The position numbers were made by a program, and so were the translations under genes. From the IMG/VR virus record IMGVR_UViG_2734482571_000008: DNA of 4,596 nt, one strand, 5' to 3'. Each line of letters opens with the position of its first letter. The stretch's first letter is position 1. This document shows positions 1 to 4,596 of the stretch, piece by piece. This stretch comes from a virus. Lineage: Duplodnaviria > Heunggongvirae > Uroviricota > Caudoviricetes. The notes beneath the pieces are model-generated. The model saw only the letters and a program-made list of their open reading frames with translations, had not been told where the DNA came from and ran no database searches.

Positions 1-753
1 TTTTCTGCTCATTATTAGCTCCTTCTGATGCCATTCTATTTCAGGAAGGAGTGTCCGTTAAACTCAGGCTACCTCAGGTTATTCGCTTCTGGGCATGGGC
101 GGATCAACAAATGATAGACGGTAATGCAGATTGTAACGCTCGCGGCGTTACAAAAAGTGCAATAGATCGCATCACTTTTATGTCTGGTTTTGCTGATGCG
201 TTAATTCAGGTTGGATGGCTGGTCGAAAATGACGGAGGGCTTTCTCTACCTAACTTTGAACGTCATAACGGAAAAAGCTCTAAAAAAAACGGGCGGTTAC
301 AAACGAGCGAGTAACAAAAATACGCGAACTGAAACGAAAAGGTAACGCTGCCAGCGTTACACAAACGGATCAAAAAGCGTTACCAGAGGAAGAGGAAGAG
401 GAAGATCTAAATACTGATCTCCCCCTCGCCAAAAACGAGCGTCTAAAAAATTCGAGCCGGAGGCTATTGAGCTGCCCGATTGGTTGCCGGAAACACTCTG
501 GCATGAGTGGGTCCGGTTCAGACAGGCATTGCGAAAACCGATTCGAACGGAGCAGGGCGCTAACGGGGCGATACGGGAACTGGAAAAATTCCGTCAGCAG
601 GGTTTTACACCTGAGCAGGTGATTCGACACAGCATCGCCAATGAATACCAGGGCCTGTTCGCGCCGAAAGGTGTTCGGCCTGAGACGTTGCTCCGACAGG
701 TTAACACCGTCTCGTTGCCGGACAGTGCGATCCCGCCAGGCTTCAGGGGGTAA
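1..753 (+). pseudogene. Phage replication protein, YdaU-like N-terminal region joined to a DnaT-like C-terminal domain; 5'-partial (starts upstream of window) and split across three reading frames by two apparent 1-nt deletions in poly-A tracts
   Basis: Frame 3 is open from the window edge to a stop at 312-314. Frame 2 is open from 284 through an acidic (GAGGAA)3-encoded linker (VTKIRELKRKGNAASVTQTDQKALPEEEEEEDL...). Frame 1 is open from 418 to a stop at 751-753 and encodes ...ELPDWLPETLWHEW...LLRQVNTVSLPDSAIPPGFRG, which closely matches the C-terminus of E. coli primosomal protein DnaT as I recall it (...PDWQPD...RDVNTVSEPDSQIPPGFRG). The frame switches coincide with A8 (282-289) and A6 (445-450). 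Adding one A at each gives a continuous ORF. The position immediately upstream of a dnaC paralog mirrors the host dnaT-dnaC operon. Confidence 0.6.
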
Positions 754-759
754 CGGACC

Positions 760-1196
760 ATGAAAAATATTGCGACAGGCGGCGTTCTGGAACGCATCCG
801 CCGACTGACCCCGCCACATGTAACCGCCCCATTCAGAACGGTAGCGGAGTGGCGCGAGTGGCAACTTGCTGAAGGCCAGAAACGTAGCGAGGAGATCAAC
901 CGCCTGAATCGCCAGTTGCGGGTGGAAAAAATTCTGAATCGCTCAGGCATCCAGCCGTTGCACCGTAAATGCTCGTTTGCGAATTACCAGGTGCAGAACG
1001 ACGGCCAGCGATACGCGTTAAGCCAGGCGAAATCCATCGCCGATGAACTGATGACCGGGTGTACAAATTTTGCGTTCAGCGGAAAACCTGGTACCGGGAA
1101 GAATCACTTAGCGGCAGCTATCGGGAATCGCCTGCTGAAAGACGGTCAGACAGTGATTGTGGTTACCGTGGCTGATGTTATGAGCGCCCTGCACGC
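760..1196 (+). CDS. dnaC: DnaC-family replicative helicase loader (AAA+ ATPase), prophage paralog (Rac YdaV-like); 3' end lost in the N gap
   Basis: ATG at 760, 6 nt after the upstream stop, with a G-rich SD-like run (aggggg, 742-747). The translation MKNIATGGVLERIRRL...RSGIQPLHRKCSFANYQVQNDGQRYALSQAKSIADEL...FAFSGKPGTGKNHLAAAIGNRLLKDGQTVIVVTVADVMSALH aligns along its length with E. coli DnaC as recalled, including Walker A GKPGTGKNH. The ORF-track extension to 1593 is an artifact of translating through the N run. Confidence 0.85.
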
Positions 1197-2537: not shown

Positions 2538-3224
2538 ATGACCCCAATAAACATATTTATGACAGTTGCTGATTTCAAACGGCCCAAATTGGAGCTCCCA
2601 AACGGGGCAAACAAACTACTACTGCACTCTTGCTGTGCTCCATGTTCCGGTGAGGTGATGGAGGCGCTTCAGGCCTCGGGAATCGACTACACCATCTTTT
2701 TCTACAACCCGAACATTCATCCTCAGAAAGAGTATTTAATTCGTAAGGATGAGAATATTCGCTTTGCTGAACAACACGGCGTGCCGTTTATTGATGCTGA
2801 TTACGACACAGACAACTGGTTTGAACGAGCCAAAGGAATGGAATGGGAGCCCGAACGAGGGATCCGTTGCACCATGTGTTTTGACATGCGTTTTGAGCGG
2901 ACAGCGCTGTACGCCGCTGAAAATGGTTTCAGTGTGATCAGCAGTTCACTGGGCATTTCACGCTGGAAAAATATGCAGCAGGTTAACGACTGTGGGCGGC
3001 GAGCCGTCGCGCATTATCCGGGCATGGTGTACTGGGATTATAACTGGCGCAAGCAGGGCGGCTCGTCCCGTATGATTGAAATCAGCAAGCGCGAAAAATT
3101 CTATCAGCAGGAATATTGTGGCTGTGTGTATTCTCTGCGCGATACCAATCTACACCGCAAATCTCAGGGACGCCCTCTTATCAAAATTGGTCAACTCCAC
3201 TACGGTAAAGAAGAGAAGGAGTGA
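2538..3224 (+). CDS. queH: Epoxyqueuosine reductase QueH (DUF208 family, cobalamin-independent oQ to Q reductase)
   Basis: The translation carries motifs I recognise as QueH hallmarks: [40 protein letters not shown], and later Cys pairs RCTMCFDM and EYCGCVYS, consistent with an Fe-S/metal site. Length 228 aa is typical of the family. The start is uncertain (ATG 2538 or ATG 2559) and neither has a clear SD. Confidence 0.8.
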
Positions 3225-3275: not shown

Positions 3276-3324
3276 GACTGCGGGTGCTTGAGGCTATCTG
3301 CTTCAGGCATGAACACCAAAAGGC

Positions 3325-3402
3325 AGATAGAGAAAAGCCCCAGTTAACATTACGCGTCCGGCAAGACGCTTAACATTAATCTGAGGCCAATTTCATGCTT
3401 TG
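3325..3402 (-). ncRNA. sok: Putative Sok-like antisense RNA, complementary to the mok/hok leader; boundaries approximate
   Basis: On the minus strand there is a promoter-like arrangement: -35 TTGCCT (complement of 3433-3438, overlapping the hok SD), 17-bp spacer, -10 TAACCT (complement of 3410-3415), predicted TSS near 3402. The transcript would be antisense to the mok start region and to a leader segment (ccccagttaacattacgcgtccggcaagacgcttaacatta) that resembles the sok target region of R1 hok mRNA. It contains a small hairpin gcgtc/gacgc (3354-3369) flanked by direct repeats of ttaacatta (3344-3352, 3370-3378). Confidence 0.35.
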
Positions 3403-3607
3403 CACATGTAGGTTAGCCTCTTACATGCCGAAAGGCAAGGAGAAGCAGGCTATGAAGCAGCAAAAGGCGATGTTAATCGCCCTGATCGTCATCTGTTTAA
3501 CCGTCATAGTGACGGCACTGGTAACGAGGAAAGACCTCTGTGAGGTACGAATCCGAACCGGCCAGACGGAGGTCGCTGTCTTCGTAGACTACGAATCCAG
3601 GAAGTAA
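3395..3607 (+). CDS. mok: mok-like reading frame (modulator of killing), an in-frame N-terminal extension of hok, 70 aa
   Basis: ATG 3395 opens a frame that runs into hok. The extension MLCTCRLASYMPKGKEKQA resembles the N-terminus of E. coli MokC as recalled (MLNTCR...KVKEKRA-MKQHKAM...). Confidence 0.45.
   Translation: MLCTCRLASYMPKGKEKQAMKQQKAMLIALIVICLTVIVTALVTRKDLCEVRIRTGQTEVAVFVDYESRK
3452..3607 (+). CDS. hok: Hok/Gef-family type I toxin (small membrane-depolarising peptide), 51 aa, HokD/RelF-like
   Basis: SD aaggag (3437-3442), ATG 3452. MKQQKAMLIALIVICLTVIVTALVTRKDLCEVRIRTGQTEVAVFVDYESRK is near-identical over the first ~44 residues to HokD as recalled (MKQQKAMLIALIVICLTVIVTALVTRKDLCEVRIRTGQTEVAVFTAYEPEE), diverging only in the last residues. 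Single transmembrane helix plus conserved Cys and periplasmic tail. Confidence 0.88.
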   Translation: MKQQKAMLIALIVICLTVIVTALVTRKDLCEVRIRTGQTEVAVFVDYESRK

Positions 3608-4182: not shown

Positions 4183-4536
4183 ATGGCACATATACAACTG
4201 GTCAAACAAACCTCTTCCGGATTACTTCTCCCGGCGACGCCGGAGAGTTGCGATTTTCTGCATCAAATCAAAATAGGTGAGTGGATACACGCAGACTTTA
4301 AGCGTGTGTGTAACTACGCATTCCACAAGCGTTTTTTCAAACTCCTGCAACTGGGTTTCGATTACTGGACTCCGGTCGGTGGGGCGATCACGCCTCGCGA
4401 ACGAAAACTGGTGTCCGGTTTCGTTGATTACCTGTGTGAATCAGTAGGCCGGGAACATACGCCAGCTCTGAGCGAAGCCGCAGAGCAATTGAGGTGTACT
4501 GGCAATAGCGGACACTACCATTTGTTCTTTTTTTAA
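4183..4536 (+). CDS. Hypothetical lambdoid-phage protein, about 117 aa as written; possibly the N-terminal part of a longer gene truncated at a T7 run
   Basis: SD ggag (4172-4175), ATG 4183 (MAHIQLVKQTSSGLLLPATPESCDFLHQIKIGEWIHADFKRVCNYAFHKRFF...). The track's TTG start at 4141 overlaps the previous gene and lacks an SD. The stop TAA (4534-4536) is formed at the end of T7 (4528-4534), and the -1 frame is open from 4509 to the window end. Confidence 0.5.
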   Translation: MAHIQLVKQTSSGLLLPATPESCDFLHQIKIGEWIHADFKRVCNYAFHKRFFKLLQLGFDYWTPVGGAITPRERKLVSGFVDYLCESVGREHTPALSEAAEQLRCTGNSGHYHLFFF

Positions 4537-4596
4537 GCAGCCATCTGATGATATTTTTCCCTGAAGGCTGCCGGGGAGATATTCCCCAGACGAGAG

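Follow-up and report, generated by a model that had tools for sequence, protein, structure and literature searches.

A ydaU-type replication-initiator gene that is very probably a lineage-fixed pseudogene with three lesions in a Rac-like prophage remnant of Shigella sonnei

Genes and features of the locus

The window, meaning the whole stretch of DNA analysed (4596 bases), contains in order a ydaU-type gene, ydaV, a DUF977 gene, a hypothetical gene, queH, hokD/sok, a Rem-family gene (Pfam PF27490) and a truncated DUF1367 gene. It represents 4.4 kb of a Rac-like prophage remnant riddled with IS elements, and an IS600 copy bounds it at each end. The features of the replication gene and of the window ends are listed below by window position.

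1-76, minus strand: left end of an IS600 copy that interrupts ydaU at codon 35/36, placed by the junction in locus L003 and by the terminal inverted repeat TGAGGTAGCCTGAGTTTAACGGACACTCC
51-314, plus strand: 87-aa IS600-YdaU chimeric ORF, with a GTG in the IS600 end, YdaU residues 36-104 and the out-of-frame tail NGRLQTSE after A8
77-79, plus strand: GGT, one copy of the 3-bp target-site duplication from the IS600 insertion (L003 compared with L001)
78-753, plus strand: ydaU-type replication-initiator remnant, codons 36-262 of 262, in frames 3, 2 and 1 (ortholog alignment)
282-289, plus strand: A8 tract, the wild-type A6 plus two A residues; first frameshift lesion, from frame 3 to frame 2 (ortholog alignment)
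386-403, plus strand: three GAGGAA units encoding EEEEEE in frame 2, the acidic linker; variable in length in frame and not a lesion
420-426, plus strand: the single TCCCCCT left at the junction of a 10-bp deletion; second frameshift lesion, from frame 2 to frame 1 (ortholog alignment)
445-450, plus strand: A6 tract, wild type and not a lesion, the same in all intact orthologs
760-1196, plus strand: 5' part of ydaV, the gene that follows ydaU and encodes a DnaC-like helicase loader; its remainder lies under the N run at 1197-1537
4490-4596, minus strand: right end of another IS600 copy, oriented like the first; it starts TGAGGTGTACTGGCAATAGCGGACACTACC and truncates the DUF1367 gene

The IS600 end at window positions 1-76 starts with TGAGGTAGCCTGAGTTTAACGGACACTCC on the minus strand and runs into the ATG of orfA at positions 12-10. 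Homology of the window to intact ydaU begins only after position 76, and the preliminary description of this DNA overlooked this loss of the 5' part of the gene. The long contig L003, which holds the window, contains the first 35 ydaU codons beyond a 1.26-kb element flanked by the GGT duplication. Thus, the gene is also split by IS600 at codon 35/36. In L003 the junctions are GGGAAGGT followed by TGAGGTGTAC at one side of IS600 and CTACCTCA followed by GGTTATTCGC at the other, where the intact locus L001 has GGGAAGGTTATTCGC. Over 1271 nt, the complete element of L003 has 99.8% identity to RefSeq elements named 'IS3-like element IS600 family transposase', it has the ends TGAGGT...ACCTCA, and its two ORFs match Pfam HTH_Tnp_1 and rve. 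The right inverted repeat TGAGGTGTACTGGCAATAGCGGACACTACC of window 4490-4596 also forms the opposite border of the IS600 inserted in ydaU in L003.

The window begins and ends with IS600 termini that point the same way, which makes it a repeat-bounded contig, a shape typical of short-read contigs. The 87-aa chimeric ORF at its left end is predicted by gene callers in many assemblies, and at its right end a DUF1367::IS600 fusion forms a 117-aa chimeric ORF (4183-4536). Downstream of the second IS600, L003 contains a phage integrase fragment and then modCBA; most of the prophage late region is therefore missing.

The 248-aa product of ydaV in L003 has Pfam IstB_IS21/Bac_DnaA matches. The run of 341 N at 1197-1537 corresponds to just 308 bp, within the 3' part of ydaV, in five assemblies that are otherwise identical, a length mismatch of 33 bases. 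A second ydaV copy in the same genomes, which is 95-97% identical and overlaps 1197-1537, may explain the scaffold gap.

The intact gene and its family

Close intact E. coli orthologs of the window gene are a single continuous ORF of 262 codons, and L001 and L002 each have it as one CDS. RefSeq places a single CDS of 789 bp in the ortholog region, with ydaV after it, and calls its product either 'hypothetical protein' or 'phage replication initiator YdaU family protein'; WP_001737256.1 has the YdaU family name. This agrees with the preliminary description, which had read the three frames as one replication gene that was ancestrally a single ORF. With window 1-1196 as a megablast query, 680 of 5,426 complete E. 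coli genomes gave a query coverage of 80% or more, and almost all of the best matches span 1129 bases per 1121 query bases.

The intact 262-aa ortholog matches phrog_2509 'replication initiation protein' from end to end (residues 1-262, E 1.2e-89). Its residues 170-262 match the DnaT C-terminal domain, the terminal IPPGFRG included (PDB 2RU8, E 9.5e-5), and they also match PDB 9ZBT (E 3.2e-4). The earlier naming of the C-terminal domain as DnaT-like was therefore correct. With NCBIfam models, a DnaT match to the last 19 residues of the ortholog only was obtained, far below the cut-off. A Pfam scan of the intact ortholog and the three window pieces gave no match at E <= 0.01, DUF1376 included. 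The family was therefore assigned from PHROGs, PDB and the product name in RefSeq. The intact gene encodes an N-terminal initiator domain, an acidic linker and a C-terminal DnaT-like domain.

The gene belongs with the YdaU-family initiators of Rac-like lambdoid prophages. The repaired window sequence (see below) translates into residues 36-262 of the 262-aa E. coli protein with 100% identity, and the gene order cro-ydaT-ydaU-ydaV(DnaC-like)-DUF977 is common to this family and the window locus, as is the DnaT-like C-terminal domain. However, the window copy is no longer intact, having been split by IS600 and frameshifted twice, and it is a remnant and not a functional member. The YdaU of the K-12 Rac prophage (285 aa, DUF1376) has an N-terminal domain unlike that of the window allele. 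The 262-aa protein and the 285-aa K-12-type YdaU have only their C-terminal 124 residues in common, at 81% identity, and the N-terminal domain of the 262-aa protein is a different mosaic module. The lambda O/P module also has an initiator gene that adjoins a helicase-loader gene, as in the window, and the intact ortholog matches phrog_678 'replication initiation O-like' over residues 77-236. In contrast, the loader in the window is DnaC/IstB-like and not lambda P, and the C-terminus of the window-type initiator is DnaT-like.

The acidic linker varies in length among orthologs. For example, 18 extra bases are present in the GAGGAA stretch (386-403) in L008, L010 and L016, and some E. coli orthologs (H9, H12 and H13) span 6 bases fewer or more at this position.

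Reading frames and frameshift lesions

The three frames are open as the preliminary description claimed, and its positions for the A8 (282-289) and A6 (445-450) runs are also correct. Frame 3 is open to the TAA at 312-314, frame 2 from after the TAA at 281-283 to the TGA at 620-622, and frame 1 from after the TGA at 415-417 to the TAA at 751-753. The description further claimed that the open frames overlap only at the A-runs. This is true of the first break, where the overlap is 28 nt (284-311) and contains A8, but not of the second, where the overlap is 202 nt (418-619) and contains three A-runs of at least five (431-435, 445-450 and 584-588). There are eight such runs in the 677 nt of the remnant at 77-753, and an A-run within the second overlap is therefore expected by chance (about 2.4 runs).

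A three-way alignment to intact orthologs identified three differences: A8 in place of A6, 10 missing bases, and no homology upstream of position 77. Besides these lesions, the closest ortholog (L001) has a single base difference from the window in this alignment. The 10-bp deletion lies about 20 nt upstream of the A6 at 445-450. The intact sequence at this site is TCCCCCTAAATCCCCCT, that is, ATC-TCCCCCT-AAA-TCCCCCT-CGCC, which contains two 7-bp direct repeats spaced 10 bp apart. A count of A residues at both sites in intact orthologs, as the preliminary description had suggested, gave A6 at each, so the first run has gained two and the second is unchanged. Thus, the breaks are not the two 1-nt undercounts that had been described, and the second is not located at 445-450, where A6 is wild type in all intact orthologs.

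The wild-type state of the first site was found in every set checked outside the Shigella sonnei lineage. A6 is present in L001, L002, L012 and L013, in all 162 complete E. coli genomes with this allele (A8 in none) and in 10 of 10 metagenome contigs; these ten were the only matches in a search of metagenomes for an intermediate A7 allele. GTDB species representatives, which do not include the source genome, were scanned for any allele from A6 to A10 and gave two matches, S. flexneri and E. coli, both with A6 and with the 10 bp intact. A8 is present in 16 loci of the S. sonnei lineage. Among the 5,426 complete E. coli genomes, no full-length match carried the 10-bp deletion. Complete E. coli genomes with A8 or the deletion were sought in order to place the events in sequence, and none was found; nor was any genome found with a subset of the three lesions.

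The preliminary description had attributed both breaks to homopolymer sequencing error, with each A-run undercounted by one in a draft and the real gene intact. The A8 lesion does sit at a homopolymer, the window is a draft-quality, repeat-bounded contig with a 341-N gap, and the addition of one A to each run mechanically opens a single ORF, as was claimed. However, the protein that results is not the native one, since it contains an extra Lys and has LAKNERL where the ortholog has LNPPRQKRAS. Removing two A residues and reinserting TCCCCCTAAA instead gives a protein 100% identical to residues 36-262 of L001, and the repaired window DNA differs from L001 by 1 synonymous base in 684 nt.

Programmed -1 ribosomal frameshifting, or transcriptional slippage, on A-rich heptamers was also considered as a way to obtain a full-length protein from the three frames. 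The heptamers A_AAA_AAC at 284-290 (frame 3) and A_AAA_AAT at 445-451 (frame 2) fit X_XXY_YYZ at the level of pattern, and the shift needed at each is -1. However, the orthologs are in a single frame with A6, and the two-frame arrangement is not conserved. Intact genes, which need no shift, contain the second heptamer as well, and a shift at this heptamer would give a non-native stretch of protein. In addition, IS600 removes the start codon and promoter. A stimulatory structure 5-9 nt downstream of A8 was sought in the predicted fold of 282-380, and none was in position. This fold has two marginal 2-bp pairings near A8, its first stable pairing is about 40 nt from the start of the run, and its only strong hairpin is at 342-360; the lack of stable pairing within about 40 nt 3' of A8 also argues against a programmed event. 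Programmed frameshifting was rejected on these grounds (pattern-level support, a layout that is not conserved, no structure and a lost gene start), and we assign it almost no probability. It had been named earlier as a much less likely alternative.

Recurrence of the lesions in other assemblies

The 16 loci compared are those that were fetched by means of the window proteins and that keep this allele. Both A8 and the 10-bp deletion are present in 15 of them, and the lesions recur in L003, L004, L006, L007, L009 and L014-L021. The sixteenth locus, L011 (CP022459.1), has A8, but the stretch that would hold the deletion is gone and the downstream part is replaced; its homology ends after window position 352 or so, and the next called gene is an IS3-family transposase. 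The parts of the window outside the N run are 100% identical to L003, L004, L006 (CP022457.1), L007 (CP019689.1) and L009. CP022457.1 and CP019689.1 are closed chromosomes that carry the window sequence.

Two proteins that exist only through the lesions of this locus were also looked up in public assemblies. The 117-aa fusion is indexed in 521 blocks of these assemblies, and the 87-aa, frameshift-dependent chimera is indexed in 481 blocks; in 397 of them it is on contigs of 2-5 kb, so the chimera recurs in hundreds of short-read contigs.

Miscounted homopolymers are not typical of the Illumina MiSeq platform. CP019689 is the complete genome of S. sonnei 75/02, which was sequenced with Illumina MiSeq mate pairs (PMC5447701). 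Among the matching accessions, the name S. sonnei is documented for CP019689 alone and is inferred for the others. The lesions are identical across assemblies, and all others checked have the wild type; therefore, they are fixed mutations of the S. sonnei lineage.

Homopolymer sequencing error was rejected for several reasons. First, the size of the lesions is wrong, as the true changes against the orthologs are a gain of two A residues and a loss of 10 bp. Secondly, only one of the two is at a homopolymer. Third, the same lesions recur base for base in independent assemblies, including the MiSeq genome. Lastly, the gene is interrupted by IS600 in any case. Taken together, this leaves sequencing error highly improbable as the source of the breaks. 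An artefact of an assembler or basecaller common to all of the assemblies is implausible, because the 10-bp deletion and the two added bases recur across projects, years and platforms.

A further possibility is an assembly chimera, in which two similar Rac-like prophage copies were collapsed during short-read assembly. The same genomes do contain the second, 95-97% identical ydaV copy, the N gap is in that region, and in L005 and L009 the two prophages are joined in other ways. However, the ydaU of the other copy is the 285-aa K-12 type, with the limited C-terminal likeness described above (124 residues, 81%), and it is therefore unable to generate A8 or this 10-bp deletion. In addition, the closed chromosomes CP019689.1 and CP022457.1 carry the identical sequence. 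Because the indels could not be produced from the second prophage and the closed chromosomes are identical, a chimera was rejected, and its probability is close to nil.

Origin of the pseudogene

The window gene is very probably a genuine, lineage-fixed pseudogene with three independent lesions in a Rac-like prophage remnant of S. sonnei. Pseudogenisation had been listed as an alternative in the preliminary description, and the three lesions against single-ORF orthologs support it. The IS600 insertion in codon 35/36, with its GGT duplication, cuts off the promoter, the start codon and the first 35 codons from the rest of the gene. The change from A6 to A8 probably arose through slipped-strand mispairing (replication slippage) in the homopolymer, and the 10 bp were probably lost through replication slippage between the 7-bp TCCCCCT direct repeats. 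The indels would have been neutral once the gene was already dead, or the order may have been the reverse; in either case, the events after the first inactivation would be neutral. The near absence of substitutions (1 synonymous in 684 nt against the E. coli ortholog) shows the decay of the gene to be recent.

IS600 is one of five insertion sequences that have expanded in all Shigella species (PMC7373316). Pseudogenes in S. sonnei arise through IS insertion, nonsense mutation or frameshifting indels (Hawkey et al. 2020, PMC7373316). The window gene follows this pattern: it is dispensable, has an IS600 insertion as well as frameshifting indels, and is fixed in the lineage. There is no substantive difference from these Shigella pseudogenes, and the window is a further example, in a prophage remnant. 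The locus is thus of an already known kind, an ordinary pseudogene in a known setting, and adds one more case to the decay of Shigella genomes and their prophages through IS elements and indels, which is well documented.

The frame breaks are therefore real biology and not a matter of data quality. An annotation that 'repaired' them would be wrong, and the proper annotation of the locus is a frameshifted pseudogene disrupted by IS600. In addition, a guess of 1-nt homopolymer miscounts made without tools can put a lesion in the wrong place, which was 20 nt off in this case.

Other observations

There is a very small chance that the remnant is not wholly inert. Both the 87-aa chimeric ORF and the DnaC-like ydaV, itself still intact, could be expressed by transcription that runs outward from the IS600 end, and slippage on A8 (A_AAA_AAC) might occasionally extend the 87-aa product. 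Separately, the GCGTTAC cluster at 133-383 could be an origin or initiator-binding site of the Rac-like replicon that still works within a dead gene. The observations require none of these readings.

The replication gene contains five copies of GCGTTAC or its complement, at 133-139 (minus), 145-151 (plus), 342-348 (minus), 354-360 (plus) and 377-383 (plus), and these sites are also present in intact orthologs. Four of the five form two inverted pairs, one of which is a perfect 9-bp hairpin at 342-360. The whole window has 6 matches against 0.35 expected, and none of 200 shuffles reached 6. The five sites may form a cluster of iterons or an origin within the gene for the initiator, an arrangement that recalls lambda, whose origin lies inside gene O.

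The locus keeps decaying and rearranging within the lineage. Several differences among its copies were also observed. In L005 and L009, the sequence upstream of 6611 has alternative joins with the second Rac-like prophage, the one with the 285-aa DUF1376 ydaU. In L011 (CP022459.1), homology is lost at about 6900. The upstream ydaT (L003 4174-4479) is called as 101 aa, compared with 140 aa in E. coli.

Two other loci in the window were identified. The gene queH (epoxyqueuosine reductase, Pfam QueH) at 2538-3224 is cargo in the early-right region of the prophage, between the replication module and hokD. The hokD/sok type I toxin-antitoxin locus is at 3282-3607, where Rfam sok (RF01794) scores 117 bits over 3282-3457. 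The HokD ORF of 51 aa is at 3452-3607, and an in-frame upstream extension to 3395 gives a 70-aa ORF.
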